From an uncultured Thiomicrospira sp. (GTDB lineage: Bacteria > Pseudomonadota > Gammaproteobacteria > CAKMZV01), in assembly GCA_965195345.1 (NCBI GenBank), contig OZ239628.1:416001-480000 (forward strand): 64,000 bases of DNA, in the 5' to 3' direction. The notes under the pieces are model-generated. The model had not been told where the DNA came from. It did not search any database and was given only the letters and a program-made list of their open reading frames with translations. Every line of letters starts with the position of its first letter. The stretch's first letter is position 1. The position numbers and the translations under genes are program-made. This document shows, piece by piece, positions 823 through 45,248 of this stretch.

Positions 823-838
823 TTCTAAGGATGCTAAA

Positions 839-6390: not shown

Positions 6391-6428
6391 ATGCCAACTC
6401 CACGCATGGAGTTGGTATAATGCGCGAC
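6391..6428 (+). promoter_or_regulatory. rpsT promoter: extended -10 and GC-rich discriminator, preceded by an inverted repeat
   Basis: TGGTATAAT at 6413-6421 then GCGCGAC; CCAACTCCA-cgca-TGGAGTTGG at 6394-6415. Confidence 0.6.
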
Positions 6429-6506
6429 CTTTCATTTTACAGCCCAAAAGATTTTCACTGTATTTTATTTAGGGCGCAACAAACAAAGCACAGACTGGAG
6501 TAACGG

Positions 6507-6779
6507 GTGGCAAATATTAAATCTGCTATAAAGCGAGCACGACAAGGCGTTGGTTTACGTAAACACAATATGGCAATGAGATCACGAGTGCGTACTTTTT
6601 TAAAGAAAGTCGACGTGGCTATAACTGAGGGGAAAAAAGAGGAAGCCGCTGAGTTTTTTAAACAAGCTCAATCGGAAGTGGCGCGTGCAGCAAATAAAGG
6701 CATATTTAAAAAAAATAAAGCTTCAAGAGATATTTCGCGCTTAAGCTCTCGCCTAAAAGGAATGGGGCAACAAGCCTAA
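6507..6779 (+). CDS. rpsT: 30S ribosomal protein S20
   Basis: MANIKSAIKRARQ...KGIFKKNKASR; GTG start with GGAG ribosome-binding site. Confidence 0.97.
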   Translation: MANIKSAIKRARQGVGLRKHNMAMRSRVRTFLKKVDVAITEGKKEEAAEFFKQAQSEVARAANKGIFKKNKASRDISRLSSRLKGMGQQA

Positions 6780-6787
6780 AAGTCTTG

Positions 6788-6814
6788 AAAAAAGGATGCT
6801 AAACATCCTTTTTA
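6788..6814 (+). terminator. Intrinsic terminator after rpsT (possibly bidirectional)
   Basis: AAAAAAGGATG-ctaaa-CATCCTTTTT. Confidence 0.75.
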
Positions 6815-7322
6815 TATTTAAGCTATCACCTAGTTTGATCTAAACAAAGCATTCGATTATTGTTGCATTAGTGTGACATAAACAACGATTACATCTATCT
6901 TTGCTTATTGCTTGAGGAAACGTTTGTTCACGCAATAAACTTTTAAGGGTAAAAGTTGGCAACCTTCTCCTAACCTCCTTCCTAACTTGGTACCATTACC
7001 AAGATGAAATGTCAGTTATTTTGTTCCGTGCACGCTTGCTTTTCATTGCTATCGTTCGCGAGGTAACGATACAGTGCATACAAGAATCATTCGTCAAAAA
7101 ATCATTTGCTATTGTAAAATGGTTTCTTAGAGAAACGTTTTTAACTAAGCGTTCACAAATCGCTTATATTTCTATGAGTGGGCGTAATGACTTTGGTTGG
7201 GCTTGCTATAACAATCAAGCGTCGATGGACGCGGGTTGTCTGTTGCAAAGGATCAAGCAAGTTTCTTTGCGAATACTACAGTAATACATCAAACCTATGA
7301 GAATAATGCAGGAGTGTACAAA

Positions 7323-8174
7323 GTGAAGAAAATAATTACCCTTTTGTTGATTGTTATGACAACAGGAGCCTTTGCAGATTCAGTTAAAACAACGTTTAGA
7401 GACCTAAAGCTAAACGGAGAATTAGTGCAAGCTGATGGAGAAAGTCTTGAGGGCAGTGATGTCGTCCTCATACTGCATGGGACATTAGGGCATAGCAAAA
7501 TGGAAGTGATTGAAACGATTCAAGACTTGTTCGCTGAAGAGGGTATGAATTCTTTGGCAATTACTTTGTCCTTGTCAAAAAATGATCGCACTGGTTTTTT
7601 CTCATGCGAACAAGCTCATTATCATCAACATGAGACGGCAGCTCTAGAGATCGCTCATTGGGTTGAGTGGTTGAAATTGCACAAAGTGAAACGGATTCAT
7701 TTGTTGGGGCATTCACGTGGAGGCAATCAAATAATAAACTACTATGGTAATAATACTAAGCACAATGGCCATGTTGCAACACTTGCCCCTATGATGGATT
7801 CTGGTAAACGAAGCCCAGCGATTGAAAATAAGCTTAAAATCGCAGAGGAAAAAATCGAAGACGGAAACCCAAATGCGCTTTTCGATACGGATGCGTTTTT
7901 GCATTGTGAAGATTCCAGAGTCTCTGCAAAAAGTTTGGTGTCTTACTACGGGCGCGATCTCCTAAAAGACACGCCGTTAGCGCTTGGGGAAATTAAAAAT
8001 CCCACGCTTGTAATTACTGGTAGTAGCGATGAAGTCGTTCCTGGATTAAAAGAAAGAATGACGCTTAAAGCACCACTTCATAAAACAATTGTGATAGATG
8101 GTGCCGGTCATTTTTTCAGAGATCTATACGCAGAAGAAGTTGTTGAAAATCTTATGGATTGGTATTCTCAATAG
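7323..8174 (+). CDS. Secreted alpha/beta-hydrolase family protein
   Basis: Signal peptide KKIITLLLIVMTTGAFA, LILHGTLGH, GHSRGG and GAGHFF; GTG 7323 follows AGGAG. Confidence 0.8.
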   Translation: MKKIITLLLIVMTTGAFADSVKTTFRDLKLNGELVQADGESLEGSDVVLILHGTLGHSKMEVIETIQDLFAEEGMNSLAITLSLSKNDRTGFFSCEQAHYHQHETAALEIAHWVEWLKLHKVKRIHLLGHSRGGNQIINYYGNNTKHNGHVATLAPMMDSGKRSPAIENKLKIAEEKIEDGNPNALFDTDAFLHCEDSRVSAKSLVSYYGRDLLKDTPLALGEIKNPTLVITGSSDEVVPGLKERMTLKAPLHKTIVIDGAGHFFRDLYAEEVVENLMDWYSQ

Positions 8175-8195
8175 GGATTAAGACAACTTTATGAT

Positions 8196-11105: not shown

Positions 11106-11110
11106 CCGCT

Positions 11111-11596
11111 CTAAAGATGCGAAATGGGCAGTGCGGTTGTGTCTTTAGAGCGCTCGAGAACCATGGTTGCAGAAACCAATTTGATGCATAGTAATCCAGC
11201 AAGTTTGTGGTAGAAAATATCGTAGCCCTTCTTGTCTTTAAAAACAGCATGTATCACAAAATCGGTTGCGCCCATTGTGCGAAAACAAGTTAGCACATTT
11301 TCTGAAGATTGGGCGAATGCGTTTATTTGATCAATGTATTCAATACTGTGTTCTTTAAGCGTAAGCGAAATGAGAACTTCAATTTCAAGCTCTAGCTTTT
11401 CCCATGAAAGCAAAGCAACTTCTGACGCTATATAACTGCCATCCTCCAAATTCTTAATACGTTTCCAAACCGCAGCCGTAGATAAATTAAGATGCTGTGC
11501 TAATTTGGCAGTAGACTGGGCGCTGTTTTTTTGCAGATGCTCCAGTATCTTTTTATCAAAATCATCGATTTTTTTCTGGGAATTTTTTTTCGTCAT
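11111..11596 (-). CDS. Lrp/AsnC family transcriptional regulator
   Basis: IDDFDKKILEHLQKN, HTH LSTAAVWKRIKNLEDG and C-terminal KDTTALP. Confidence 0.9.
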   Translation of the reverse strand: MTKKNSQKKIDDFDKKILEHLQKNSAQSTAKLAQHLNLSTAAVWKRIKNLEDGSYIASEVALLSWEKLELEIEVLISLTLKEHSIEYIDQINAFAQSSENVLTCFRTMGATDFVIHAVFKDKKGYDIFYHKLAGLLCIKLVSATMVLERSKDTTALPISHL

Positions 11597-19302: not shown

Positions 19303-22168
<2,866 letters not shown>

Positions 22169-22296
22169 ATGTAACACCTAAATCACTTTAGTGATTTGAG
22201 GCTACATAGTTCACTAATCTCAAAAGATTAATTTTTAACGTGGACTTGGCGTTTACCGAATAATGAGGGCTTGCATTGCAAGTGCTCGTACCAGTT

Positions 22297-22414
22297 TGCC
22301 TGGTGACCATAGCAAGATCGAACCACCTGATCCCATACCGAACTCAGAAGTTAAAGGTCTTAGCGCCGATGGTAGTGTGGGAGTTCCCATGTGAGAGTAG
22401 GACATTGTCAGGCA
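22297..22414 (+). rRNA. rrf: 5S ribosomal RNA
   Basis: TGCCTGGTGACCATAGC...CCCATACCGAACTCAGAAG...GAGAGTAGGACATTGTCAGGCA. Confidence 0.97.
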
Positions 22415-29989: not shown

Positions 29990-31684
29990 TTAAGAGTATT
30001 GTTTTAGCAGTTTTTGAAGGCTTGCAATTAATGTGTTGAAAGAGGAATTATTAACTTTTTTATTGATGTCGTAGCTTAATTGATGGTGGTAGTACCAAGG
30101 CAATGCTTCTCCTATTCCTACACCGAGAATAGGAAGAAGTGGGGTGAATCGTTGAATGACTTGTTGCAGGTGTTTGCTGAGGATGTCATCTTGGTTTTGC
30201 AGTCGTGTGCACGTGTCTGAAGGATAGCTGTCCGATAAAATGATTAGGCAACGTTGTCCTTCCTGTTTGATTAAACGTTTGCATGCCCAATCGAGGCTCT
30301 CACCGTCTATGCTCTCTTTGTATATGTTATCTTTAAGTAATCCTGCCATATGCGTTTTCCTACTAGTGTAGGATTGCTCATAAGATTTGAATTGGATGAG
30401 CAGGCGTTCATTTAATCGGCCGGGATTGTTTGGTTTCCCTTGTTGTTCCCAAAGTTTTAAAGCGTTGCCACCTTGCCAAGTGTTAGTTGTAAAGCCTATA
30501 ACTTCGGTTTTGATGTTTGCTATATTGCAAGCACGGATGATTGTTTCTACAAAGCCAGCCAGCCATCGGTTATGTGGACGGATGGAGCCAGAACAGTCAA
30601 TTAATACGCATAAGGAAGCATGGACTTCGGGTTGGGTAATGGGCTGAAGGAATGCGTTGTCAGACGCTTTTGCTAATGCAATTTGTACGAGTTGAGCGCC
30701 ATCAATGTATCCAGAATCATACCTATCGTGCATCAGAGGTACTTCAGGCTTTAAAAACAGTGACTTTAAACGTTGCGCAAGATGAATAACGTTGATTGGA
30801 TTTGCTATTATGAGTTGTTCAAGCTCATCACGCAACGTTTTCAAAGCTAATGGGCGAGCGATTTCTTCAATGGGCTTTTCAAAGTCATAAAGCGTGGTAA
30901 AGATTTTGTAATTGGGGTAGGCGCTGTCTAAAAGGGATACGGATTTTTGTAGACTACTTTTAGGATTTGGTCGTTCGATTTTTGCATCAAAAGCATTGAC
31001 ATCTAACCAATTCAGTAGGGCGTTGTTGATGCTGTCTTTATCTTTCTCATTCTTGCGCATATTTCGCTCTTGGTACACCATTTCTTCAATGATTTGGATA
31101 ATGGTGAGCGCGCATTTTGCATAGAGGCGTTGATCATGCCGATTGGCAAGCATTTTACTGAGTGCAATGCCAATTAGAGGGGCAATGCTTGAGCGTGTTT
31201 CTTCGATAATCCCTTCGGTTTCTTCAATGACAGCTCGAGCGTTTAGGCGCGCATAAACAATTTGTATAACGGAGTAGAGCAGAACTCCAATGTGCTGCTC
31301 AAGAAATCCATCAGCATGGCATTGGTGCGACCAACGTGTAAAGTTTGCCTCGATGTTTGAACGCATTCCTTTGTAGGTTGTGTCACAAATGGATTCAACA
31401 CGCAATTGCTCAAAGCAATCAAATAACCATTGACCTATTAAAGACTGTGGAGCCATTTCTTGGTGAAGGTCGGCATTAGAAAGTTGCTCGCGTAATGCAA
31501 TAGCGTCGATACGCCCACGCAAGGATGCGAAGCTCCCACTTTTATCAGGCTTTTTTAAGTGAAAATTGTAAACGCGACGCTGTTGTTGAAAATAAATGTC
31601 TTCATCAAAAATATGCAAATAAGGGTTATTTGCAAGCCCTCGCAGGGTGGCAGAATTTATTTGATTGAACTGGCTACTGCCCAT
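29990..31684 (-). CDS. CobT-like VWA-domain protein
   Basis: FEQLRVES N-terminal motif, MIDAS DCSGS, EVIGFTT, PGRLNE and KESIDGE match the CobT C-terminal VWA family. Confidence 0.8.
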   Translation of the reverse strand: MGSSQFNQINSATLRGLANNPYLHIFDEDIYFQQQRRVYNFHLKKPDKSGSFASLRGRIDAIALREQLSNADLHQEMAPQSLIGQWLFDCFEQLRVESICDTTYKGMRSNIEANFTRWSHQCHADGFLEQHIGVLLYSVIQIVYARLNARAVIEETEGIIEETRSSIAPLIGIALSKMLANRHDQRLYAKCALTIIQIIEEMVYQERNMRKNEKDKDSINNALLNWLDVNAFDAKIERPNPKSSLQKSVSLLDSAYPNYKIFTTLYDFEKPIEEIARPLALKTLRDELEQLIIANPINVIHLAQRLKSLFLKPEVPLMHDRYDSGYIDGAQLVQIALAKASDNAFLQPITQPEVHASLCVLIDCSGSIRPHNRWLAGFVETIIRACNIANIKTEVIGFTTNTWQGGNALKLWEQQGKPNNPGRLNERLLIQFKSYEQSYTSRKTHMAGLLKDNIYKESIDGESLDWACKRLIKQEGQRCLIILSDSYPSDTCTRLQNQDDILSKHLQQVIQRFTPLLPILGVGIGEALPWYYHHQLSYDINKKVNNSSFNTLIASLQKLLKQYS

Positions 31685-31694
31685 AAGTGCTATT

Positions 31695-32648
31695 TTATAG
31701 TATCGACAGCATTGATTCAGGAAGCTCTTGATTAAACATTCTTTGATAGTATTCTGCTACGATAGAGCGTTCGGATTCATCGCATTTGTTAAGGTATGCT
31801 AGGCGAAAAGAAATGGCTAAATCATTAAAAATAAGGTGGTTTTCAGCCCAAGATATAACTGTTCTTGGAGACATTAGTGTTGTAAGGTCGCCATTTTTCA
31901 ATCCTTGACGTGTCAGGTTTGCTACTGCTATCATGCCTTTTAGAGTTTCATCAAGGGCACTGTTTTCTCTAAAACCAGATACTTTTGCCTTCACAACTTG
32001 CAACTCTTGATCGGGCGATAGATGGTTTAGCGATGAGACAATATTCCAACGATCCAACTGAGCGTGGTTCAGTCGATGCGTTCCATGATAAAGGTTATAA
32101 ATATTTCCCAACCCAAGCGTGTTTGAAGTGGCAAAAAGGCGAAACTGGGGGTGTGCAGTAATAACCTTGTTGCCATCAGGAAGGGTGAACTTACCATCTG
32201 CTTCTAGGAGGCGTTGAATAATGAACATGATTTCAGGTCTTCCTGCATCGTATTCATCAAATATTAATGCCATAGGCTGTTGTAATGCCCAAGGGATTAT
32301 TCCCATTTGATATTGAGTAGATGTTTTGCCATCAACAACATTTAAAGTATCCTTGCCAATTAAATCAAGACGGTTGATGTTGCCGTCAAGATTTACTCTC
32401 ATGCAAGGCCAGTTCAATCGTGCTGCAACTTGTTCAAGATGGGTGGATTTGCCTGTTCCATGCAAACCTTGAATTAATACGCGACGGTTGTATTCAAAAC
32501 CAGCTAAGATGGAAAGTGTTGTTTGATGGTCAAAGTGATACAAATCGTCAATATCAGGGACAAATTCTGAACGTTCTATTAGCGCATTGATCTGCCAATC
32601 TGATTCGATATTGAAAGTTTTTTGGACGTTGATTGTTGTTGTTTTCAT
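31695..32648 (-). CDS. CobS-like AAA+ ATPase
   Basis: Walker A GLHGTGKST, HLEQVAARLNWP, Walker B IFDEYDAGRP and MSPRTVISWAEN. Confidence 0.88.
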   Translation of the reverse strand: MKTTTINVQKTFNIESDWQINALIERSEFVPDIDDLYHFDHQTTLSILAGFEYNRRVLIQGLHGTGKSTHLEQVAARLNWPCMRVNLDGNINRLDLIGKDTLNVVDGKTSTQYQMGIIPWALQQPMALIFDEYDAGRPEIMFIIQRLLEADGKFTLPDGNKVITAHPQFRLFATSNTLGLGNIYNLYHGTHRLNHAQLDRWNIVSSLNHLSPDQELQVVKAKVSGFRENSALDETLKGMIAVANLTRQGLKNGDLTTLMSPRTVISWAENHLIFNDLAISFRLAYLNKCDESERSIVAEYYQRMFNQELPESMLSIL

Positions 32649-33628
32649 TGGTTTGCTTGTAGCGCAGTCAAAGTGGCTGTTAATAAAACATCTTTTGCTG
32701 AACAGCCACGCGAAAGGTCGTTTGCAGGTTGAGCAAGCCCTTGAAGAATAGGTCCTATGGCTAGCGCATTTCCAAACCGTTCGGCAATTTTATAGCCAAT
32801 GTTTCCTGCATTTAAATTCGGGAAAATGAGTACGTTGGCGGGATTACTAAGTTGCGGGTTTGAGATTTTTTGTTGAGCCACTGTGGACAAAATTGCTGCG
32901 TCAAGCTGAACTTCCCCTTCAATTTCCCAGTCAGGGTGCTGCGTTTTAAGTAATGAGGTCGCTTGTGCAACTTTGTTGACTTCGTCATGTGTGGCGCTTC
33001 CTGCCGTGGAGAAAGAGAGCATTGCAACACGGGGATTTTCAGAAAAAAGTGTTTGATAGTTTAGGGCGCTTGCACTGGCAATTTGTTTTAATTGGTCAAC
33101 ATCCGGATCGACTACAAGCGCGCAGTCGGAGAATATAAATTGCTTTTGTTTCAGCGGGTGGCTGTCAGGTAAGAGCACAATAAAGAAGCTCGAAACCTGA
33201 GAGACATTTTCAGCTGTTCCGATAATTTGCAATGCACCACGGACAACGTCTGGAGTAGTATAACAAGCACCACTCACGCAGCCATCAACAGCGTTTTTTT
33301 TGAGGAGCATGTAACTGTATGTTAGAGGGTCAAGTATGTTCTTTCGAGCATCGTCAAGCGACATTCCTTTGTGTTTTCTAAGGGCGTGTAAATCATTACT
33401 AAACTTGCTTAGATCAGGGGTTTGAGAGGGGTCTATGACTTCAATCTCAGCAGGGACGTGCTGACGAATTCTTGATGAATTACCAACGAGGACAGGCTCG
33501 AATAAGTCAGATTCCCAGCCTTCAATGGAAGCTTCAATGATCCTTAAGTCTTCACCTTCAGCGAAAACAATGCGCTTGGTTGAAGCCTCTTTAACGCGCG
33601 TATAAATTTTTTCTACTGCATCGCCCAC
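32645..33628 (-). CDS. pta: Phosphate acetyltransferase
   Basis: RIVFAEGED, AMLSFST, GEVQLDAA, FPNLNAGNIGYK and NDLSRGC. Confidence 0.95.
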   Translation of the reverse strand: MGDAVEKIYTRVKEASTKRIVFAEGEDLRIIEASIEGWESDLFEPVLVGNSSRIRQHVPAEIEVIDPSQTPDLSKFSNDLHALRKHKGMSLDDARKNILDPLTYSYMLLKKNAVDGCVSGACYTTPDVVRGALQIIGTAENVSQVSSFFIVLLPDSHPLKQKQFIFSDCALVVDPDVDQLKQIASASALNYQTLFSENPRVAMLSFSTAGSATHDEVNKVAQATSLLKTQHPDWEIEGEVQLDAAILSTVAQQKISNPQLSNPANVLIFPNLNAGNIGYKIAERFGNALAIGPILQGLAQPANDLSRGCSAKDVLLTATLTALQANQ

Positions 33629-33640: not shown

Positions 33641-35011
33641 TTAAGGTAGCACATCAAGAAATTGATAATACTGGTAGAACAAGCGTTGGCCAATACGTCT
33701 GAAGGGAGTGAAGAGGTGTTTTTCCAATGGTGTCGTGTATGTTGGCAAATTAGGCATTGGAACGCCTGCAATCATATCAGACATGCGCAACCCTGCATGT
33801 ACGCTGTAAGCAACGCCGTTTCCGCCGTAGCCAAGAGAGTAGAAAATACCACTGTCAGGAGAAAAAATACGAGGCATCATATCATGGCTGACATCAACCC
33901 ATCCCCACCATGAGTAATCAATCTGAATATTTTTAAGTGCAGGAAATTTATTGGCCATACCATTGATCAGTAAATCGTAATGTTTTTTATTGTCTGCATC
34001 ACTACCAGTGATCGCGCTGCGTGTTCCCATCTGTAGTCGGTTATCTGGAAGCAAGCGGTAATAAAATCGCAAATTTCGGGTATCGGTGATAACTAAATTG
34101 GTATGTAATCCTGCCTCACGTATCTCGTTTTCAGTCAGAACACGAGTTACAACCGAGTTTGATAATATTGGCATATACCGGTAAGCAAGCAGTGGGTTGA
34201 GCATGGCACTGGTATAACCGCCAGTAGAAACAGCTACATTTTTAGTCTTAACAATGCCTTTAGGAGTATGCAGGTAATGGATGCCATTTTCACTGTACCA
34301 GTTTGTTACAGGAGAGTGAGGATGAATTTTGACACCGAGGCTACGTGCCGTTTTTGCATAGCCATAAGCCAATTTCAGCGGATGTACACCAACCCCGTAT
34401 GGTTCAAGCATAGCACCAAAACATTGGGCATCATTAACGTATTCGCTACTTACTTCTTGTTGGTCAAGCCACTTGCTTTTTTGCCCATATACGCGGTTAT
34501 GTATTTCAATTTCGGTTTGTATTTTTTCAACGAGCGATTTGCGGTGTGCCAATAATAAATGTCCGTCTCCTTGAGGCTGACAGTCCATTTCAGGTTGATA
34601 CGCCAATTCACGAAACTGCATGTAACCCTCTTTTAGGTCTTCATACATACCAACTGCGATTTCTTCTCCCCAACGAGATACCCACTGGCCAAGTCCGAGC
34701 CTGCCAGATTTGAATTGACCTTGTCCGCCGTTTCTACTAGTACAGCCCCAAGCTAAATGGTTTGCATCTAATACGGTTGCTTTAATACCATGATTCTTTG
34801 CCAAGAACATTGCCGTTGTCAGTCCTGTGAAGCCTGAACCAATAATTACAACGTCTGCATCGACATCGCCATCGATAGGGGGGTCTAATTCAGGAGCTTC
34901 ACCGGCAGTGGCTACCCAATAAGTCGGGGCATAATCTACCCCATTACCGGGGGTTGAGTCAACTAAAGGGTCGTATTTTGGATTATAAGGATGGTTCGCT
35001 GGAGCGCTCAT
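33641..35011 (-). CDS. tauY: FAD-dependent oxidoreductase, taurine dehydrogenase large subunit-like
   Basis: YDPLVD...YAPTYWVATAG N-terminus, GSGFTG FAD motif and WGCTSRNGGQ; context tauABC/pta/xsc. Start 35011 gives an ATGA overlap with tauX (alternative start 35023). Confidence 0.8.
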   Translation of the reverse strand: MSAPANHPYNPKYDPLVDSTPGNGVDYAPTYWVATAGEAPELDPPIDGDVDADVVIIGSGFTGLTTAMFLAKNHGIKATVLDANHLAWGCTSRNGGQGQFKSGRLGLGQWVSRWGEEIAVGMYEDLKEGYMQFRELAYQPEMDCQPQGDGHLLLAHRKSLVEKIQTEIEIHNRVYGQKSKWLDQQEVSSEYVNDAQCFGAMLEPYGVGVHPLKLAYGYAKTARSLGVKIHPHSPVTNWYSENGIHYLHTPKGIVKTKNVAVSTGGYTSAMLNPLLAYRYMPILSNSVVTRVLTENEIREAGLHTNLVITDTRNLRFYYRLLPDNRLQMGTRSAITGSDADNKKHYDLLINGMANKFPALKNIQIDYSWWGWVDVSHDMMPRIFSPDSGIFYSLGYGGNGVAYSVHAGLRMSDMIAGVPMPNLPTYTTPLEKHLFTPFRRIGQRLFYQYYQFLDVLP

Positions 35012-35382
35012 TTGGTCGGACATTGTTTGCGAAAAGCATTTTTTGTCGCAATCTTACCATCTTCAAAAGAAAAAATATCACAACCTTGTGCTTCTATACG
35101 GCTGCCGTCGGGGTTGGTTCCAGTAAAAAGCCAATGTGATAGACCGACATCACCACTAGCGAAACAATCTAATGATTTCCAGTGCGCGTCTTTAATGGTA
35201 GCAAAGACCCCTTCAAAAGCAGCGCGAACAGCCTCTTTTCCAGCGATTTCATTGCCGTATGAATGGTCGCCAGCGAGGGTGTAAAAAATACAATCATCGG
35301 TCATCATAGACGCTAGAGCGGCACCGTCATGTTTATTAAATGCGTCGCCGAAGTTGCTCATCAAATCTACATAGTTAGTCAT
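35008..35382 (-). CDS. tauX: NTF2/SnoaL-like protein, taurine dehydrogenase small subunit-like
   Basis: DAFNKHD..ALASMMTDDCIF, GCDIFSF and KNAFRK; translationally coupled to tauY. Confidence 0.75.
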   Translation of the reverse strand: MTNYVDLMSNFGDAFNKHDGAALASMMTDDCIFYTLAGDHSYGNEIAGKEAVRAAFEGVFATIKDAHWKSLDCFASGDVGLSHWLFTGTNPDGSRIEAQGCDIFSFEDGKIATKNAFRKQCPTK

Positions 35383-35435: not shown

Positions 35436-36287
35436 TTAATTCTTTCCGCGCCATGGAATGAGCTTTCTTTCTAAGTAACGCATAAACAAATCAATCATAT
35501 AAGCTATCAATCCAATTAAAATGATCCCAAGCACTACAATATCGGTGGAAAGGAATTTACTTGCGACCATTATCATCATGCCTACACCTGCTTCAGCTGC
35601 CACCAATTCTGCGGCGACAACAGTACCCCAACAAACGCCCATACAAACGCGCATTCCTGTAAATATCTCGGGCAGTGCATTTGGAAGAATGACTTTGAAC
35701 AGAATTTGTGTTTTTGTGGCGTTCAATGTGTAAGCGGCGTGAATTTTAGAAATCTTTGTTGCTAGAGCACCAGAGCGTGTCGCCAATGCCATAATCCAAA
35801 TGGCTGCAAGAAACAAAAGGAATACTTTTGCCGACTCTCCAATGCCTAACCAAAGAATGACTAAGGGGATAAGCGCGAGCGGAGGCATAGGGCGGAAAAA
35901 TTCAACGATTGGGTCGAACAATCGATTCATGACGCGCGATAGTGCTAAAGCGAATCCTAGGGGGATGCCAATAGCACAGCCTATTGCAAATCCCATTAAG
36001 ACTCGAAACAAACTCAAACCAATATGCTCAGCTAAAGTAAAGTTTCTGAATCCATCGACAGATATTTTTACAAATTGATCCCATACGGAAGGTATTGATG
36101 GCCAAAATATTGGACTGACCCAACCATATTTCCCAGCTAAAAACCATAAAAACAATAACGAACCAATGGATAAAAAAGTCCACCCTCGAGAGCCTTTAGC
36201 AGCAACCACTGAAGCATCGCCGAATGTGACGGTTTTGCGAGTAGTGTTTGGATCAATAAATCCCAGTTTTATAAGAGTTTTTTTCAT
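35436..36287 (-). CDS. tauC: Taurine ABC transporter permease
   Basis: RPMPPLALIPL, LPEIFTGMR and VVAAELVAA. Confidence 0.88.
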   Translation of the reverse strand: MKKTLIKLGFIDPNTTRKTVTFGDASVVAAKGSRGWTFLSIGSLLFLWFLAGKYGWVSPIFWPSIPSVWDQFVKISVDGFRNFTLAEHIGLSLFRVLMGFAIGCAIGIPLGFALALSRVMNRLFDPIVEFFRPMPPLALIPLVILWLGIGESAKVFLLFLAAIWIMALATRSGALATKISKIHAAYTLNATKTQILFKVILPNALPEIFTGMRVCMGVCWGTVVAAELVAAEAGVGMMIMVASKFLSTDIVVLGIILIGLIAYMIDLFMRYLERKLIPWRGKN

Positions 36288-37091
36288 TTATGCTTCCTCA
36301 ACTCGTCCCATGATTTCTTCTTCCATGTTCCAAATCATTGATAATATTTCTTCTCTGACATCTACAAAATCACTTTGTTTCTTAATGTCGCGTGTATTCG
36401 TTTTTAGCCCCTGTTCAGCAAAAGGCAGGTTGTATTCCTTTTCAATGCGACCTGGTCGAGGTGCCATTATGAATAGGCGGTTACCCAAAATCATTGCTTC
36501 TTCGACGCTGTGGGTAATCAATACAATTGTTTTTCCAGTCTCTTTCCAAAGTTTCAAAATCAGACCTTGCATTTTTTCACGAGTCAATGCGTCTAAGGCA
36601 CCTAGTGGTTCATCCATTAAAATTAAGTCTGGTTTGTTTGCAAGGCATCTGGCAAGAGCAACACGTTGCTGCATGCCTCCCGATAATTCATATGTTGACT
36701 TTTTACCAAAATTTGAAAGCCCAACTACGTCTAACCACTCTTGAACTAATTTTTTTGTTTGCGCTTTGGGTTTTCCTGACATGTTTGGACCAAACCCTAC
36801 ATTGTCTTCAACACTCAACCACTCAAACAGCGCGCCTTGTTGGAAAACCATTCCACGACTAGGGTCGGGTGATGTGATTTCCTTTTCATTGAAGATCATG
36901 CTGCCCCCAGTGGGGGCAAGAAATCCAGCCAATATGTTGAGCATAGTGGTTTTTCCACAACCAGACGGACCTAATACAGTCAATAGCTCACCCTCTTTAA
37001 GGTCGAAAGAGACGTCTTTCAATGCTTCAACAGTATCACCGTTTGGCAGTTCATAGGTCATAGATAAATTTTTAACTGCTAATCCTTTCAT
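36288..37091 (-). CDS. tauB: Taurine ABC transporter ATP-binding protein
   Basis: GPSGCGKTT, LSGGMQQRV and DEPLGALDALTRE. Confidence 0.9.
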   Translation of the reverse strand: MKGLAVKNLSMTYELPNGDTVEALKDVSFDLKEGELLTVLGPSGCGKTTMLNILAGFLAPTGGSMIFNEKEITSPDPSRGMVFQQGALFEWLSVEDNVGFGPNMSGKPKAQTKKLVQEWLDVVGLSNFGKKSTYELSGGMQQRVALARCLANKPDLILMDEPLGALDALTREKMQGLILKLWKETGKTIVLITHSVEEAMILGNRLFIMAPRPGRIEKEYNLPFAEQGLKTNTRDIKKQSDFVDVREEILSMIWNMEEEIMGRVEEA

Positions 37092-37365: not shown

Positions 37366-37400
37366 CAAAACAAAGGGTGGCAAAATTAATTGCCACCCTC
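37366..37400 (-). terminator. Hairpin/terminator after tauA
   Basis: Minus strand AGGGTGGCAA-loop-TTGCCACCCT followed by TTGTTTTG. Confidence 0.7.
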
Positions 37401-37414: not shown

Positions 37415-38410
37415 CTATTTCACGTCTGCTAGGACACTATCATCAATTGTACGGCTGTACTCCTCGAGTGTAAGCGCTCTTGGCATTTGATCTTGTTCAA
37501 CAAAGAAGTCGGCAACTTCTTTTGTGAATTCTTGAATTCCACCAAGCATCCATTTAGAACTTAATTGCTCAGAACGCGTGGGAAATCCAAAATTCTTCAA
37601 AGAACCTGCAGTATCTGCTGGGCTCATACCAGCGGCATTAGCAATCGTATCATAAAAACGCTCTGGGTAGCGAAGGTATGATACATTGGCATCTTCAGTA
37701 ATTTGCATAAACTGTCTGATGATTTCAGGGTTTTCTCTTGCAAATTTTCCTGTAACAGAAACGATATCAAAAACTTTTAAGCCAATAGCTTCTTGTTCAG
37801 CACCAGTCATTAGCACTGTTCCATGCTCTTTCATACGCTTTAATGAACCACCGAAGCCACAACCCATATCGATGTCTCCTCTTGCCAAAGCGGCGAAGAC
37901 ATCAGAGTTTTGCATGCTCAAGATTTTCACTTTGCTAGCATCAACACCAAGATGTTTTAGTGTGCGAAGCAATTTATAGTGCGTCACATTACCATTAGGG
38001 CTTCCTACTTTCTTGCCTTCTAATTCCTTAGCATTGGCTTGAGTAATGCCCGTTCCATTGCGTACAACGCAATTGTCACCTTCTGCATAAGTTACTGCAA
38101 CGCCTACGAGCTTTAAATCAACGCCTTTGCTAACCGCAACTACGAAAGGAACAAATCCTTGAGAGAAAGCGATATCAATATCACCAGCGACCATGGCAGC
38201 AGTCATAGCATTGCCATCGGCAAAGGCTCTCCAATTCACTTTCAATCCCATTCTTTTGTCGAAAGTTTCCTCTACTTGAGCAACCTGATTAGGGGTTGGC
38301 CACTCTAGAAAGTAAGCAACGTTCAATTCATCTAATGCGTTTGCAGATAGACTGAAAGACAGCCCAGCAGCAATAACAAGCGATGCGAGCATATTTTTAA
38401 TTTTTAACAT
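37415..38410 (-). CDS. tauA: Taurine ABC transporter substrate-binding protein
   Basis: Signal peptide; VAYFLEWPTP motif typical of marine/alphaproteobacterial TauA; cluster context. Confidence 0.85.
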   Translation of the reverse strand: MLKIKNMLASLVIAAGLSFSLSANALDELNVAYFLEWPTPNQVAQVEETFDKRMGLKVNWRAFADGNAMTAAMVAGDIDIAFSQGFVPFVVAVSKGVDLKLVGVAVTYAEGDNCVVRNGTGITQANAKELEGKKVGSPNGNVTHYKLLRTLKHLGVDASKVKILSMQNSDVFAALARGDIDMGCGFGGSLKRMKEHGTVLMTGAEQEAIGLKVFDIVSVTGKFARENPEIIRQFMQITEDANVSYLRYPERFYDTIANAAGMSPADTAGSLKNFGFPTRSEQLSSKWMLGGIQEFTKEVADFFVEQDQMPRALTLEEYSRTIDDSVLADVK

Positions 38411-38688: not shown

Positions 38689-39603
38689 ATGAAAAAGAAC
38701 TCTGCACACGCATTGCTTTTATTGGCAGGTGTTATTTGGGGTGTCGGTTTCGTTGCCCAAAAAACCTCAATGGATGATGTCGGACCACTTCTTTTTGTGG
38801 GACTACGTTTTCTAATAGCGGCACTCGTAACTTTTCCTCTTGCTTGGATTCAATATAGGCGATTGCAACGCTTGCAATGTGAATTTTCAAGAGTCGATTG
38901 GATGCTAATGACAGTTACTGGGGTTGTCTTTTTTCTGGCAATGACCTTGCAACAGGTGGGATTGCTTTATACAAGCGTTACAAAATCAGGTTTTTTAACA
39001 GGCTTATATGTTGTATTAGTGCCGTTCATCATGTACTTTGTTCTTCGTAGAAAACAAAGCAAATACATCTGGTTTTGTGCTTTCGGGGCTCTAATAGGTA
39101 TTTATTTATTGAATCATAGTCCTGTGGACCGTTTGAATTTTGGAGATTTTTTAACGGTAATATCAGCGATTATGTGGGCTATACACGTTATTTTAATAGG
39201 CAGTTTGTCGCGCAAATTTAATGCGCCTTTCTTTTTCGCTTTCATGCAATTTTTCATAACAGGATTGCTTGGTGTTACGGCTTATGGATTGTTTGCAGGC
39301 GCCTCTTTTGAAATGGTTGCGAACTTAGATGGTTTAAGTGGCGCAATGGTGGAATTGTTGTACACGGCGATTATGGCGGGGGCGATTGCCTTTAGTCTAC
39401 AGATAATCGGACAACGCCATACCACAGAGGCAAATGCTGCGGTTTTACTTTCATCAGAGGCATTGTTTGCTGCATTGTTTTCTATACTGCTGATAAGTGA
39501 ATCGTTATCATTCGTTGGTTACATTGGTTGTGCGATTCTATTTATTTCAGTTGTACTGGTTCAGCTACTGCCTACCAGTAAAGAGATAAAGAATACGACT
39601 TAA
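38689..39603 (+). CDS. DMT/EamA family transporter
   Basis: IWGVGFVAQK, GLRF, LQQVGL, FLTGLYVVLVP; about 10 transmembrane segments. Confidence 0.88.
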   Translation: MKKNSAHALLLLAGVIWGVGFVAQKTSMDDVGPLLFVGLRFLIAALVTFPLAWIQYRRLQRLQCEFSRVDWMLMTVTGVVFFLAMTLQQVGLLYTSVTKSGFLTGLYVVLVPFIMYFVLRRKQSKYIWFCAFGALIGIYLLNHSPVDRLNFGDFLTVISAIMWAIHVILIGSLSRKFNAPFFFAFMQFFITGLLGVTAYGLFAGASFEMVANLDGLSGAMVELLYTAIMAGAIAFSLQIIGQRHTTEANAAVLLSSEALFAALFSILLISESLSFVGYIGCAILFISVVLVQLLPTSKEIKNTT

Positions 39604-39789
39604 ACACACACGCTTGCATAAACATAGGGAGTGACTTTTTTGCATTGAGATGGCATCTATTCGTTACAATGGGCGACCTGCATTCTCATGCGCATATTAA
39701 TTCACAATCTAAACGAGGATTTTAATGATAACCTCAAGTGTCTGGATGTGGAACGAAAATAAACACTTAGAAATTTAAGGATGATTAGA

Positions 39790-41559
39790 ATGAGTAAAGT
39801 AAAAATGACGCCAAGTGAGGCTTTTGTTGAAACGATGGTTGCAAATGGGGTGACGGATATTTACGGTATTATGGGTTCTGCGTTTATGGATGCTATGGAT
39901 ATTTTTGCACCAGCTGGTATTCGCTTTATTCCAGTTGTTCATGAGCAGGGTGGGGCGCATATGGCGGATGGTTACTCACGCGTTAGCGGACGTCATGGTG
40001 TGGTCATCGGTCAAAACGGACCCGGTATTAGTAACTGCGTTACAGCGGTAGCAGCCGCATACTGGGCACACAGCCCTGTTGTTATGATTACACCTGAAAC
40101 AGGTACTATGGGGCTTGGACTTGGTGGTTTTCAAGAAGCCAATCAACTACCAATGTTTCAAGAGTTTACCAAGTATCAGGGACACGTGAATAATCCAAAG
40201 CGTATGGCGGAGATTACCGGTCGGTGTTTTGATCGTGCTATGTCTGAGATGGCTCCTTCGCAACTGAATATACCACGCGATTATTTCTACGGTGAAATCG
40301 ACGTTGAAATTCCAAAGCCTCAACGTATTGATCGAGGACATGGTGGCGAACAGTCGTTGCAAGAAGCGGTTGATCTCCTTGCTTCTGCTAAATTTCCAGT
40401 TATTGTTTCAGGCGGTGGAGTGGTATTTGCTGATGGTGTGCAAGAGTGCATCGCATTGGCTGAGCGCTTAGGGGCACCTACTGTCAACAGTTATCTGCAT
40501 AATGATTCTTTCCCTGCAAGTCATCCTTTGTGGTGTGGTCCTCTAGGCTATCAAGGTTCAAAAGCTGGAATGCGTTTGATCTCTAAAGCGGACGTTGTTC
40601 TTGCTTTGGGTTCGCGTCTTGGACCATTTGGAACATTGCCGCAACATGGTATGGACTATTGGCCTCAAAATGCCAAAATTATTCAGGTTGATGCCGATCA
40701 TAAAATGCTTGGATTGGTGAAAAGCATTAATGTTGGAATATGTGGAGATGCGAAAGCAGTCGCTAAAGTATTGGTTGCACGCTTGGCTGATAAAAAACTT
40801 GTTTGTGACGAGTCACGATCTGCACGATCTGAGGAAATAGCGCGTGAAAAGAAATCGTGGGAAGATGAGTTGGATAATTGGACGCATGAAAAAGACGATT
40901 TCAGTCTTGACATGATAAAGGAACAAGGGGGCGAGGCCGGAAACTATTTGCATCCCCGACAAGTATTGCGAGAGTTAGAAAAGGCAATGCCAAAAGATGT
41001 AATGGTATCTACAGATATCGGTAATATCAATTCCGTGGCAAATAGCTATTTGCGTTTTGATCGTCCAAGAAGTTTCTTCGCTGCGATGAGTTTTGGTAAT
41101 TGTGGTTATGCGTTTCCAACGATGATTGGAGCAAAAACGGCAGCGCCTGAACGACCAGCCATATCTTATGCTGGTGATGGTGCATGGGGCATGAGTATGC
41201 AAGAGACTTTTACCTGTGTGCGACATAATATTCCAGTTACCGCTGTTGTTTTCCATAATCGTCAATGGGGCGCGGAAAAGAAAAACCAAGTTGATTTTTA
41301 TAATCGTCGTTTTACTGGTGCCGAGCTTGAAAATGGTTCTTGGGCTGAAGTAGCTAAGGCAATGGGTGCTGAAGGAATTCGGGTTGATCGATTAGAGGAT
41401 GTTGGTCCTGCCTTGAAAAAAGCCATCGATATGCAAATGAATGAGAAAAAAACTTGTATATTGGAGATCATGTGTACCCGTGAATTGGGAGATCCGTTCC
41501 GCCGCGATGCTTTATCAAAGCCTATTCGTTTTCTTGATAAGTATAAAGATTACGTTTAA
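39790..41559 (+). CDS. xsc: Sulfoacetaldehyde acetyltransferase
   Basis: MTPSEAFVE, GIMGSAFMD, ThDP motif GDGAWG, NRQWGAEKKNQ and C-terminal ELGDPFRRDAL. Confidence 0.96.
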   Translation: MSKVKMTPSEAFVETMVANGVTDIYGIMGSAFMDAMDIFAPAGIRFIPVVHEQGGAHMADGYSRVSGRHGVVIGQNGPGISNCVTAVAAAYWAHSPVVMITPETGTMGLGLGGFQEANQLPMFQEFTKYQGHVNNPKRMAEITGRCFDRAMSEMAPSQLNIPRDYFYGEIDVEIPKPQRIDRGHGGEQSLQEAVDLLASAKFPVIVSGGGVVFADGVQECIALAERLGAPTVNSYLHNDSFPASHPLWCGPLGYQGSKAGMRLISKADVVLALGSRLGPFGTLPQHGMDYWPQNAKIIQVDADHKMLGLVKSINVGICGDAKAVAKVLVARLADKKLVCDESRSARSEEIAREKKSWEDELDNWTHEKDDFSLDMIKEQGGEAGNYLHPRQVLRELEKAMPKDVMVSTDIGNINSVANSYLRFDRPRSFFAAMSFGNCGYAFPTMIGAKTAAPERPAISYAGDGAWGMSMQETFTCVRHNIPVTAVVFHNRQWGAEKKNQVDFYNRRFTGAELENGSWAEVAKAMGAEGIRVDRLEDVGPALKKAIDMQMNEKKTCILEIMCTRELGDPFRRDALSKPIRFLDKYKDYV

Positions 41560-41586: not shown

Positions 41587-44514
41587 ATGTCGCTCAACCC
41601 ATTTGCAACCGTTCAAGAAACGATTGACTTAAGCCCTAAAGTGGCTGATGAGATAAAGCACACAACGTGTTATATGTGTGCGTGTCGCTGTGGAATAAAG
41701 GTTTATTTGAAAGACGGTACGGTTCGCTATATTGAAGGCAATCCTAACCATCCCGTTAATAAAGGGGTTTTGTGCGCTAAAGGGTCAGCGGGCATAATGA
41801 ATCATTATTCCCCTGCTCGGTTAACAAATCCTTTGTTGCGTGTTGGTGAGAGAGGAAGCGGTGAATTCCGTGAAATCACTTGGGAAGAGGCAATAAATCT
41901 TGCCAGTGAATGGTTAGGAAGTGTTCGTGCAACAAACCCTAATAAACTTGCGTTCTTTACTGGACGTGATCAATCACAGTCGCTTACAGGGTGGTGGGCA
42001 TCGCGTTTCGGGACAACAAATTTTGCGGCGCATGGAGGTTTTTGTTCGGTCAATATGGCAGCGGCAGGTTTGTATTCAGTGGGTGGTGCGTTTTGGGAAT
42101 TTGGTGAGCCAGATTGGGAACGTACTAAATATTTCATGTTATTTGGTGTTGCTGAAGATCATGATTCAAATCCAATAAAGATTGGCTTGGGTAAGCTCAA
42201 AGCACGTGGTGATGCCAAAACGATTTCAATAAATCCAGTTCGTACCGGCTACTCAGCTATAGCGGATGAGTGGGTGGCGGTTAATCCCGGCACTGATGGG
42301 TTATTTATCTTTGCTTTAATTCATGAATTGCTGCGTGCTGATAAAGTTGATTTGAACTATTTGGCGCGCTATACCAATGCTTGTTGGTTGGTGCATCAAA
42401 ATCAAGGCAGTGAAGAAAATGGGTTATTTGTTCGTGATGAGGCAGGAAAACCATGCGTATTTGACTCACAAACGCAACAGGTCGTTGCATTTGATTCTGC
42501 CTCCAAACCCACTATTGTAGGTAGTGTTACTTTAGATGATGGCTTAAGTGCAATTCCTTCGTTTGAGTTGATTGCCGAACGTTATTTGTCGGATGAATAT
42601 GCACCGGATGCAGTAGCGGATAAAGTGGGTATTAGTGGGGATACCATACGGCGCATTGCTGCTGAAATAGCAAGGGTTGCTTTTGAAGAAGAAATTGTTA
42701 TTGATCAAAAATGGGTCGATTGGCAAGGAAACGAACACGATAAAATTATAGGCAGACCTGTGAGCATACATGCTATGCGAGGTATCTCTGCCCATTCTAA
42801 TGGTTTTCATACCTGTCGAGCGCTGCACATATTACAAATGTTGATAGGGAGTGTTGATGTGCCAGGCGGCTGGCGTTACAAAGCACCTTATCCAAAGCCA
42901 ATACCTCCAGCACCTAAACCAGCCCATTCAACAGGTGAACCGTTTCAAGCATTGCATGGCATGCCCATAGGAAACCCCACCTGTCCAGAAGATTTGCTCG
43001 TGGATGAAAATGGCGAACCATTGCGCCTTGACAAGGCATACAGTTGGGAGCACCCTATGGCATCGCATGGGTTGATGCATATGGTTCTTCAAAATGCTTG
43101 GGCAGGAGACCCCTACAAAATTGATGTGTTGATGATGTATATGGCGAATATGGCTTGGAATTCATCCATGAATGTCAAAGATACGCTTCGTTATTTAACG
43201 GATAAAGATGAAAATGGAGAATACAAAATTCCCAAGTTTATTTATTCAGATGCATATTATTCCGAAACGGTTCCTTATGCCGATTTAATTCTGCCAGATA
43301 CTACTTATTTAGAGCGCTACGACTGCATTTCATTACTTGATAGACCTATCTCTAGTGCGCACGGTCCAGGGGATGCTATTCGTGTCCCAGTTGTTGAGCC
43401 TGATCGTGATGTGCGCCCATTTCAAGATGTATTAATTGAGCTGGGCGCGAAGCTCAATTTACCAGGCTTTGTTAATGATGCGGGTGAGCCCCTCTATCCT
43501 GGTGGCTACGTTGATTACATGGTGAATCATGAGCGTGCTCCTGGTATTGGACCGCTAGCTGGTTGGCGAGGTGACGGCAGTGCGCATGGGCGAGGTGAAA
43601 GTAATAGCCAACAAATTGAAAAATACATAGAGAATGGTTGCTTTTGGCAGCATCATTTGCCGCCTGATCAGTTGTTCTATAAGCATGTCAATAAAGCATA
43701 TCTTGAGTATGCAAAAGACATGGGTTGGATAGGAGATAGTGATCCAATTCTTTTGCAGTTGTACAGTGAGCATTTGCAAAAGTTTCGTTTAGCGGCGCAA
43801 GGGCATGGCAAGGTTAGCGTGCCTGAATTGCATAGGCAACGTGTTGAAACGTATTTTGATCCAATTCCTATGTGGTATGAGCCCTTTGAACAGGCAATTG
43901 TCGAAGCTGAAGAATTTCCTTTACATGCGATTACTCAACGACCTATGCATATGTATCATTCGTGGGGGTCGCAAAATATTTGGTTAAGGCAAATTACCAA
44001 TAAAAACTATTTGTATATTCATGTCGATACTGCTAAAAAGTACGATTTGCAAAATGGTGATTGGATATGGTTAAGCAGTCATCATGGCCGTATAAAAGTC
44101 CCGATAAAAACCATGCTTGGAACCAATGTCAATACAGTATGGACTTGGAATGCTATTGGTAAACGTCGAGGTGCGTGGGCGCTTGACAATAATTCGCCTG
44201 AGTTTAAAGAGGGTTTTTTGTTAAACCATCTCATTAGTGAGTTATTGCCCCCTAAAGAAGGGAGTTATCGATATTCTAATTCTGACCCAGTTACTGGGCA
44301 AGCGGCATGGTACGATTTAAGAGTGAAGATTGAAAAGTGCAGCCCAACCGATGCGGAAAATGGAATCATTGAGCCTTATTTCGCACCAACTAATAAGAGC
44401 ATTGGCACACGCAAAACTATCTCAACCTTTGGGTTAGAAACCAAAGACATTCCATCTGGGAAACCCTCTAAACCAATGAAAGAATGGGTGTCATATTCTG
44501 ATGATCGTAAATGA
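41587..44514 (+). CDS. soeA: Cytoplasmic sulfite dehydrogenase molybdopterin subunit
   Basis: TTCYMCACRCGI, no Tat signal, AAHGGFCSVNMAA and SNSDPVTGQAAWYD. Confidence 0.88.
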   Translation: MSLNPFATVQETIDLSPKVADEIKHTTCYMCACRCGIKVYLKDGTVRYIEGNPNHPVNKGVLCAKGSAGIMNHYSPARLTNPLLRVGERGSGEFREITWEEAINLASEWLGSVRATNPNKLAFFTGRDQSQSLTGWWASRFGTTNFAAHGGFCSVNMAAAGLYSVGGAFWEFGEPDWERTKYFMLFGVAEDHDSNPIKIGLGKLKARGDAKTISINPVRTGYSAIADEWVAVNPGTDGLFIFALIHELLRADKVDLNYLARYTNACWLVHQNQGSEENGLFVRDEAGKPCVFDSQTQQVVAFDSASKPTIVGSVTLDDGLSAIPSFELIAERYLSDEYAPDAVADKVGISGDTIRRIAAEIARVAFEEEIVIDQKWVDWQGNEHDKIIGRPVSIHAMRGISAHSNGFHTCRALHILQMLIGSVDVPGGWRYKAPYPKPIPPAPKPAHSTGEPFQALHGMPIGNPTCPEDLLVDENGEPLRLDKAYSWEHPMASHGLMHMVLQNAWAGDPYKIDVLMMYMANMAWNSSMNVKDTLRYLTDKDENGEYKIPKFIYSDAYYSETVPYADLILPDTTYLERYDCISLLDRPISSAHGPGDAIRVPVVEPDRDVRPFQDVLIELGAKLNLPGFVNDAGEPLYPGGYVDYMVNHERAPGIGPLAGWRGDGSAHGRGESNSQQIEKYIENGCFWQHHLPPDQLFYKHVNKAYLEYAKDMGWIGDSDPILLQLYSEHLQKFRLAAQGHGKVSVPELHRQRVETYFDPIPMWYEPFEQAIVEAEEFPLHAITQRPMHMYHSWGSQNIWLRQITNKNYLYIHVDTAKKYDLQNGDWIWLSSHHGRIKVPIKTMLGTNVNTVWTWNAIGKRRGAWALDNNSPEFKEGFLLNHLISELLPPKEGSYRYSNSDPVTGQAAWYDLRVKIEKCSPTDAENGIIEPYFAPTNKSIGTRKTISTFGLETKDIPSGKPSKPMKEWVSYSDDRK

Positions 44515-45248
44515 CTGAATTACCTAAAAAAACAAAACGTAAGCTTGGGCTTGTGATTGATCTCGGCAGCTGTGTAGGCTGCCATGCCTGTGTTGTTAGT
44601 TGCAAAGAATGGAACACTAGTGGACATATGGCACCACTCACTGACTTCAATCCGCAGCAAGCTGATCCAAACGGAGTTTGGTTCAATCGTGTGCACAGTT
44701 ATGAAGTGGAGCGTGAGGGTTGCTCACAGACGGTGCATTTCCCCAAGTCGTGTTTGCACTGTGAAGATGCACCATGTGTAACAGTTTGCCCAACAGGCGC
44801 TTCTTATAAACGCGAGGAGGATGGTATTGTGTTGGTTAATGCCGATACGTGTATTGGTTGCAAATTGTGTTCATGGGCGTGCCCTTATGGAGCAAGAGAG
44901 TTTGATGATAATGATCGAGTGATGAAAAAATGCACTTTGTGCGTTGACCGTATTTACAATGCAAATTTAGATGAAAGCTCACGTGTTCCAGCATGTGTTG
45001 CTGCTTGTCCAACAGGCGCGCGCCATTTTGGAGACTTAGGGGATGAAAACTCTGAAATTGCTAAGTTAGTTGAAAATCGGCAAGGTTATGCTTTGATGCC
45101 AGAACAAAATTGTCAGCCAGTGAATCGTTACCTTCCTCCTCAAGAAAAAACCAATACGCAACAAAAAGATATCGCGCTTGAGGCTGCTACAGATAGCCAG
45201 CAAAGCTTGTTGAATCGCTGGGCGGATCGCGTCGCAGCTAATTTTTAA
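44511..45248 (+). CDS. soeB: Sulfite dehydrogenase 4Fe-4S subunit
   Basis: CVGCHACVVSCKEWN, CLHCEDAPCVTVCP and CIGCKLCSWACP. Confidence 0.88.
   Translation: MTELPKKTKRKLGLVIDLGSCVGCHACVVSCKEWNTSGHMAPLTDFNPQQADPNGVWFNRVHSYEVEREGCSQTVHFPKSCLHCEDAPCVTVCPTGASYKREEDGIVLVNADTCIGCKLCSWACPYGAREFDDNDRVMKKCTLCVDRIYNANLDESSRVPACVAACPTGARHFGDLGDENSEIAKLVENRQGYALMPEQNCQPVNRYLPPQEKTNTQQKDIALEAATDSQQSLLNRWADRVAANF

Follow-up and report, generated by a model that had tools for sequence, protein, structure and literature searches.

A CobS/CobT-like AAA+/VWA gene pair in the taurine locus of an uncultured Thiomicrospira sp. that may serve the sulfoacetaldehyde module instead of a cobaltochelatase

The stretch of DNA analyzed here, called the window, comprises 64,000 nucleotides from an uncultured Thiomicrospira sp. 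(GenBank assembly GCA_965195345.1, contig OZ239628.1, positions 416,001 to 480,000). It carries a taurine catabolism locus that ends in two genes resembling cobS and cobT, the genes for the AAA+ motor and the VWA adaptor of aerobic cobaltochelatase. The evidence tips modestly toward the interpretation that this pair derives from the CobST motor and has been recruited to the sulfoacetaldehyde module, sulfoacetaldehyde acetyltransferase (Xsc) being its most likely client. A CobST-derived machine with a new client is proposed because the motor and its adaptor have been kept, the chelatase subunit CobN is absent, and a link to sulfoacetaldehyde genes recurs across different gene orders.

The genes of the locus run on the minus strand in the order tauA-tauB-tauC-tauX-tauY-pta, followed by the cobS-like gene and, at the end, the cobT-like gene. 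The stop of pta, a phosphate acetyltransferase gene (32645..33628, minus strand; PTA_PTB, 349 bits; TIGR00651, 333 bits), overlaps the start of cobS by 4 bp (ATGA, 32645-32648), and a 10-nt spacer (31685-31694) lies between the stop of cobS and the ATG of cobT. The cobS-like gene (31695..32648, minus strand) encodes an AAA+ ATPase of 317 amino acids with AAA_5 and CobS_N domains, the Walker A motif GLHGTGKST and the Walker B motif DEYD; it scores 441.6 bits against TIGR01650, under the equivalog cut-off of 558.55. The cobT-like gene (29990..31684, minus strand) encodes a predicted adaptor of 564 amino acids that matches the Pfam families CobT (75.9 bits) and CobT_C (95.6 bits) and, in two stretches, TIGR01651 (186.9 bits, under the cut-off of 759.05). 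The gene run, the overlap, the spacer and the motifs, including DCSGS in the adaptor, had been described in an earlier sequence-only reading of this DNA, and every one of them is present in the sequence or its translations.

The CobT-like protein consists of a CobT domain (about residues 1-228), a short disordered linker (230-255), a helical region (256-346) that is modelled in part with low confidence, and, at the C terminus, a VWA domain (about 350-564) with the metal ion-dependent adhesion site (MIDAS) motif DCSGS. Its AlphaFold2 model has a mean predicted local distance difference test score of 85, and the best Foldseek matches of the model, in a library older than the CobT structure entries, are the VWA domain of NorD (E 1.5e-07) and the MIDAS domain of Rea1. 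The known CobST motor is represented by PDB entries 9ujv and 9uka and by two preprints (10.64898/2026.07.21.739949 and 10.64898/2026.10.09.757910). The window CobS aligns with CobS of 9ujv over its full length (411.8 bits), and the window CobT aligns with CobT of 9uka at 159.6 bits (127.8 in the C-terminal part and 30 in the N domain). According to the available text of 10.64898/2026.07.21.739949, the CobNST assembly contains six CobS, one CobT and one CobN. The CobS-CobT contact residues named there were placed by hand on the alignments to 9ujv and 9uka. Eight of the 13 named CobS contacts are identical in the window protein (D110, R147, D263, E308, Q311, R312, E317 and I325), and five are conservatively replaced (S102 by N, I104 by L, I112 by L, A322 by M and A323 by L). 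The CobT contacts R76, D80 and N130 correspond to R56, D60 and N110 of the window protein and are invariant in 47 full-length CobT-like relatives, as are the MIDAS residues D363, S365, S367, T400 and D485. The pair thus has the Walker motifs, the N domain and VWA/MIDAS domain, and the contact residues that belong to the CobS/CobT fold and assembly, and its adjacent AAA_5 and VWA/MIDAS genes also match the layout of the MoxR-type AAA+/VWA pairs that serve one enzyme, a candidate client being indicated by the genomic association with xsc and pta. Since the residues that join CobS to CobT are conserved, the motor-adaptor assembly is probably intact.

The genome that contains the window is a single contig of 1,920,693 bases (99.7% complete) and holds one CobS homolog, the window copy. 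No match to CobN (PF02514), to CbiB/CobD, to cobalamin synthase, to CbiC or to the B12-binding domain was found in this complete genome; control genomes were matched in each search. Neither an encoded CobN nor a sign of cobalamin biosynthesis or use was therefore detected. A CobS phylogeny of 87 rows, obtained with a quick IQ-TREE search after nine near-identical SAR11 rows had been dropped, contains a branch with 99% support in the SH-like approximate likelihood ratio test (SH-aLRT) that parts 63 alpha-type rows from 24 rows, the window among the latter and hence outside the canonical alpha-type clade. The alpha-type rows come from SAR11, Rhodobacterales, Rhodospirillales, Sphingomonadales and several gammaproteobacterial genomes, and no sulfonate genes were found near cobST in any of the 63. 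Of the 24 clade rows, 19 lie within 10 kb of xsc, pta, tauXY or soeA, three (G067, G264 and G076) have xsc elsewhere in the genome, and one (L044) lies on a contig that is cut within xsc. In the remaining locus (L072, Paralcaligenes), the 10 kb upstream of cobS are free of xsc, and the contig breaks off inside cobT. Long branches lead to the window and its family, so that their exact placement inside the 24-row clade is unsure.

That the pair is a genuine cobaltochelatase motor for cobalamin synthesis or salvage is very improbable, and for the window genome this reading is close to refuted. In its favor are the clear full-length homology to CobS and CobT, the public records that call relatives "cobalt chelatase" or "cobaltochelatase CobT-related protein", and the presence of CobN in 4 of 11 genomes whose CobS belongs to the 24-row clade (Cupriavidus, Variovorax, G067 and G352). 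The window genome, however, lacks matches to all the cobalamin families listed above, the equivalog scores are under the cut-offs, and the pair falls in the separate clade. CobN was not matched in the other seven clade-type genomes (G000, G001, G003, G076, Aromatoleum, Pandoraea and Modicisalibacter), and those of Aromatoleum, Pandoraea, Modicisalibacter, Cupriavidus and Variovorax have one CobS homolog each. Three of the four CobN carriers also possess a ChlI/ChlD-like pair, which adjoins cobN in Cupriavidus and Variovorax and lies about 70 kb away in G067. CobN is able to work with ChlID-type subunits. Since such a pair is present in these three carriers, and next to cobN in two of them, CobN there seems to have a motor of its own.

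Relatives of the window pair repeatedly lie near sulfonate genes. Two genomes of the same genus (G001 and G002; CobS 66-67% identical) have the order tauABC-pta-cobS-cobT-tauE, and a genome from another genus of the same family (G003; CobS 61% identical) has pta-cobS-cobT after an M24/creatinase-like gene, tauABC being divergent. Species genomes scanned with the CobS alignment gave at least 591 relatives, the best 80 of which were taken for the reading of neighborhoods. Of these 80 best loci, 15 have cobS-cobT no more than 10 kb from xsc, pta, tauX, tauY or soeA, and in one of the 15 xsc is cut by the contig end. The 15 linked loci are labelled Azoarcus, Aromatoleum, Burkholderiaceae, Comamonadaceae, Rubrivivax, Pandoraea, Paraburkholderia, Cupriavidus, Variovorax, Modicisalibacter and, unexpectedly, Paeniglutamicibacter. 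Their CobT proteins are 29-33% identical to the window CobT and align to it over its whole length; for the majority of the other 65 loci CobT aligns in the VWA half only, or more weakly over the full length at about 23-27% identity. Across the 24 clade loci, the neighbors within 10 kb are xsc in at least 15, pta in 7, tauX or tauY in 7 (6 each) and soeA in 4.

The arrangement of these neighbors varies. The order pta-cobS-cobT is co-directional in the window and in G001 to G003; xsc is divergent from cobS-cobT in betaproteobacteria, with an IclR-type regulator upstream of cobS that was read in one locus and is inferred in eight others; xsc-cobS-cobT is co-directional in G352; cobST is convergent with pta-xsc-tauXY in Pandoraea and Paraburkholderia; and tauXY forms a divergent unit adjacent to the pair in Modicisalibacter. 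These differing gene orders argue against one frozen inherited arrangement. The locus labelled Paeniglutamicibacter, of the Actinomycetota (L049), has an xsc-cobS-cobT-pta cluster whose CobS and Xsc branch among betaproteobacterial rows and G352, which suggests a transfer or a contaminating contig.

Several other genes were observed next to the pair. A gene for a small protein of the Lin0512 family follows cobT in L036 (about 6381-6749), L043 (13069-13344) and L124 (10079-10348). It was detected in these 3 loci by tblastn, the open reading frame cluster that contains it spans 6, and it was rejected as a constant partner of cobT for occurring in too few loci. In the Paralcaligenes locus L072 (7931-9937), the genes ahead of cobS encode a regulator of the IclR type and a ThiO-like glycine oxidase (225.8 bits, slightly below the cut-off); ThiO is a family of thiamine-synthesis enzymes. 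Subunits of thiamine diphosphate (ThDP) enzymes of the 2-oxoacid:ferredoxin oxidoreductase type are encoded within about 4 kb of cobS-cobT in L120 (G207; 2316-4379) and L121 (G221; 3258-4313). Both genomes are Xsc-negative, and this proximity may be a coincidence.

The association extends from neighborhoods to whole genomes. In a class-wide sample of 400 genomes, CobS was found in 20 and Xsc in 27; 13 had both, 7 CobS only and 14 Xsc only. Xsc is present in all 7 clade-type CobS genomes of this sample, against a background of 27 in 400, and all 6 Xsc-negative CobS carriers that were placed in the tree are of the alpha type. In a sample of the order around Pandoraea (251 genomes), CobS occurs in 12 and Xsc in 40, the unpublished genome G612 being one of the 40. 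Eleven of the 12 CobS-positive genomes have Xsc, and the exception is a CobS fragment of 142 residues. In nine genomes of the order sample, cobS is 0.3-3.8 kb from xsc, and these nine account for 9 of the 10 highest Xsc scores (at least 1021 bits), the tenth belonging to G572, which lacks CobS. The samples may overlap with the 80 loci, and related genomes are not independent, so that Fisher values from these counts are descriptive only and overstate the association.

The Xsc phylogeny gives a similar picture. Among its 28 rows, all 17 from CobST carriers fall in one 22-row clade with 99% support. The six rows outside this clade are all from genomes without CobS, including G130, which is on a very long branch. 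Xsc is considered the best client candidate because it is the commonest neighbor and because the pair follows one Xsc subgroup. The sequence-only reading had held that no cobalamin gene is in the window and that the pair is not a cobaltochelatase, and it had named a CobS/CobT phylogeny, the presence of cobN and a B12 pathway elsewhere in the genome, and a neighborhood link to xsc as points on which this could be tested. The absence extends to the cobalamin families searched in the whole genome; the missing CobN and B12-family matches, the scores under the cut-offs and the separate clade (99% SH-aLRT) bear out the second claim; and the window clade lies outside alpha-type CobST and is strongly linked to xsc, as well as to pta and tauXY, in neighborhoods and by co-occurrence across genomes. 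The earlier interpretation is supported in part, its further proposal that the pair would remodel or reactivate a particular enzyme being a hypothesis.

These observations are consistent with a model in which a hexameric CobS-type AAA+ motor and a CobT-type adaptor, descended from the motor of aerobic cobaltochelatase, would no longer serve CobN or cobalamin synthesis. The pair would instead belong to the sulfoacetaldehyde module, which comprises Xsc, Pta and often TauXY and sulfite handling and serves the dissimilation of taurine and C2-sulfonates. If it works like the CobS6:CobT1:CobN1 assembly, CobT may grip a client protein between its N-terminal and its C-terminal domain as CobS hydrolyzes ATP. 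The client would be Xsc of one particular subgroup, and the pair would load, exchange or rescue its cofactor or metal, or release an inhibited state. Xsc is a ThDP- and Mg2+-dependent enzyme that releases sulfite next to its cofactor, and sulfite cleaves thiamine. We infer all three elements of the model: that the pair acts on a protein of the pathway, that this protein is Xsc, and that the chemistry is one of reactivation. A bolder version, which we regard as doubtful, is that the pair would be the first AAA+/VWA activase for a ThDP enzyme, expelling damaged cofactor or an inhibited state from Xsc so that Mg-ThDP is reloaded. CobST would then be, more broadly, a portable motor that separate lineages have attached to separate clients, namely CobN, Xsc and perhaps an AurF-like di-iron protein.

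Two other explanations concede that the pair is no chelatase. The pair could be a passenger with a general function, doing whatever the orphan alpha-type CobST does and merely traveling with an xsc island in beta- and gammaproteobacteria. Alpha-type CobST without a chelatase subunit does exist: Caulobacter vibrioides, a control, has a CobS above the TIGR01650 equivalog cut-off and no CobN match, so that even a canonical-scoring CobS occurs without that subunit; alpha-type CobS occurs without a CobN match in G027, G102 and G135; and cobST is present in SAR11 loci. The absence of the pair from many Xsc-positive genomes and the confinement of all linked loci to one clade also fit a passenger. Against it, Xsc accompanies CobS in all 7 clade-type genomes of the class sample and in all CobS-positive genomes of the order sample except the one with the fragment, proximity has been kept through at least five gene orders in addition to the translational coupling to pta in the window, and a general function would predict no loss where xsc is absent. 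We judge this explanation unlikely.

Improbable, in our view, is that the same machine serves another client, namely Pta, TauXY or proteins that handle sulfite (SoeABC, TauE), into one of which it might insert a cofactor or metal. The pair is co-directional with pta in the window family, with the 4-bp overlap in the window, while xsc is 0.7-1.4 Mb distant in G001 and G002; tauXY adjoins the pair in Modicisalibacter, 4 loci have soeAB within 10 kb, and in G001 cobT is followed by tauE. The neighbor counts, however, put pta, tauX or tauY, and soeA each well under the at least 15 of 24 for xsc, the pair of G001 has no adjoining tauXY, and the pair tracks an Xsc subgroup. To our knowledge, Pta has no cofactor requirement.

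Several observations weigh against the favored model, some of them against a strict requirement for the pair. In the window family the pair travels with pta and not with xsc: xsc is elsewhere in the genome, far from cobST, in G001 to G003, as it is in G067, G264 and G076. G004, of the same family and 95% complete, has xsc and pta without CobS. CobS is missing from 14 of the 27 Xsc-positive genomes in the class sample and from 29 of the 40 in the order sample. No substitute AAA+/VWA pair was found beside xsc in 11 CobS-less loci inspected, ClpA being near in two. Within the 22-row Xsc clade itself, five rows (G004, G016, G382, G155 and G214) come from genomes without CobS. The pair is therefore an accessory that is not strictly required. 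A search for a special feature of CobST-associated Xsc returned 20 clade-marking columns and a one-residue insertion, nothing of which was interpretable. Since all linked loci are in one clade, the association with xsc could stem from a few transfers of a gene island; to this are added the overstated Fisher values and the four CobN carriers, in which a chelatase role is possible. Sulfite damage to ThDP as the rationale for the pair draws on general chemistry and is pure inference.

Comparison with known systems places the pair closest to the CobNST motor, with which it shares the two-gene layout, domain architecture, ATPase motifs, MIDAS and CobS-CobT contacts; the window CobS and its relatives in alpha-, beta- and gammaproteobacteria share about 55-64% identity. 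The pair differs in that CobN, three further B12-synthesis families and the B12-binding domain were all unmatched in the window genome, and also by its separate clade, its scores under the cut-offs and its xsc/pta/tau context. Its CobT also departs from canonical CobT in aligning well only over the VWA half and in having a much shorter linker. With the orphan alpha-type CobST of Caulobacter, SAR11 and others it shares the lack of a chelatase subunit, but it lies on the other side of a supported split and near sulfonate genes.

Two further AAA+/VWA systems are described in the available text of 10.64898/2026.07.21.739949: NorQ/NorD, which inserts FeB into nitric oxide reductase, and CbbQ/CbbO, the Rubisco activase, in which a motor-adaptor pair remodels an inhibited metabolic enzyme. 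The window pair resembles NorQ/NorD as an AAA+ motor with a VWA adaptor, and Foldseek matches the CobT model best to the NorD VWA domain; however, the match of NorQ to CobS is distant (25.5 bits), and the proposed client and pathway differ. CbbQ/CbbO would be the closest functional analogy to the mechanism proposed, an activase action of the window pair being suggested by that analogy, but the match of CbbQ to CobS is 31-33 bits and the window has no Rubisco context. The pair belongs to neither family, at 25-33 bits compared with 411.8 bits to CobS.

Some alpha-type cobS-cobT pairs also have distinctive neighbors. A gene for an AurF-like di-iron oxygenase (PF11583) adjoins the pair in L050, L116 (G065), L122 (G253) and L125 (G398). 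All four loci are gammaproteobacterial; three have the gene directly after cobT, and L116 has it on the opposite strand, upstream of cobS. Xsc was not found in G065, G253 and G398, genomes in which CobN was not searched. The AurF-like protein may be a second client of a CobST pair other than CobN. In L035 (G027; 218-11157), alpha-type cobS-cobT directly follows a gene for an aldehyde dehydrogenase of 841 amino acids, and the group adjoins genes for an MttB-family methyltransferase and two dimethylglycine/sarcosine dehydrogenase-like proteins; neither a CobN match nor an Xsc above the cut-off was found in G027.

The rest of the locus is as follows. Upstream of pta on the minus strand are a tauY-like gene for an FAD-dependent dehydrogenase subunit of the DAO family (33641..35023; DAO, 172 bits), whose product is 48-55% identical to those of genes adjoining tauX-like genes in six related loci, and the tauX candidate, which encodes a SnoaL-like small subunit of 124 amino acids (35008..35382; SnoaL_2, 77.5 bits) that is 43-51% identical to open reading frames adjoining tauY in related loci. 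These are preceded by the genes for a taurine ATP-binding cassette (ABC) permease, tauC (35436..36287; NF007545, 224 bits), for the taurine ABC ATPase, tauB (36288..37091; NF008421, 266 bits), and for the taurine-binding protein, tauA (37415..38410; TIGR01729, 172.7 bits). The run is tightly packed, with overlaps or gaps of at most 53 nt, except for 323 nt between tauA and tauB. Divergent from it, on the plus strand, are genes for an EamA-family transporter (38689..39603; PF00892, 118 bits) and for Xsc (39781..41559; TIGR03457, 1043 bits, cut-off 676.4), a soeA-like molybdopterin subunit gene (41587..44514; Molybdopterin and Molybdop_Fe4S4) and a soeB-like Fe-S subunit gene (44511..45248; Fer4_11); the names soeA and soeB are assigned labels and not model matches. 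The window Xsc is 75-82% identical to the xsc products that adjoin cobST in 13 loci. The open reading frames of the locus are long frames with strong family matches and not chance.

A terminator-like hairpin of 11 pairs, G+C-rich and with a T run, lies between tauA and tauB (37373-37400, minus strand), and through it the level of the binding protein could be set above the rest of the operon. Beyond cobT are a promoter-like site, an rpsU-like gene that was read from the sequence with no family search, and yqeY. The hairpin and the site before rpsU are from a promoter and terminator scan whose counts were at chance (27 against 25.7 expected, and 10 against 10.4). The rRNA genes of the window are split: 23S and 5S are at 19303-22413 (plus strand), and 16S follows 34 kb on at 56326-57865 (plus strand), with two tRNAs after it. 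The taurine cluster is located between the 23S/5S and the 16S genes.

Literature searches, which covered papers outside subscription journals, found no paper that connects CobST-like genes with xsc or taurine. In PMC5320631, a comparative study of TauR regulons, the words "chelatase", "cob" and "ATPase" are absent from the main text, and the supplementary regulon tables could list the genes. PMC2265553 and PMC12879404 were rejected as relevant reports; to judge by their available text, they concern the unrelated Salmonella-type cobS and cobT. Among 8000 candidates scored in public protein records, 335 are relatives with E ≤1e-10. Since relatives carry the chelatase names cited above and the pathway is lacking here, surveys that take cobS and cobT to mark B12 synthesis will miscount organisms of this kind. 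Taurine and C2-sulfonate dissimilation via Xsc has been treated as fully listed; if the interpretation favored here is true, a conserved, ATP-consuming accessory pair would be an unrecognized component of it. The few AAA+/VWA machines that maintain specific enzymes (CbbQO, NorQD, CoxDE and CobST) would then gain a new class of client, one without a tetrapyrrole.

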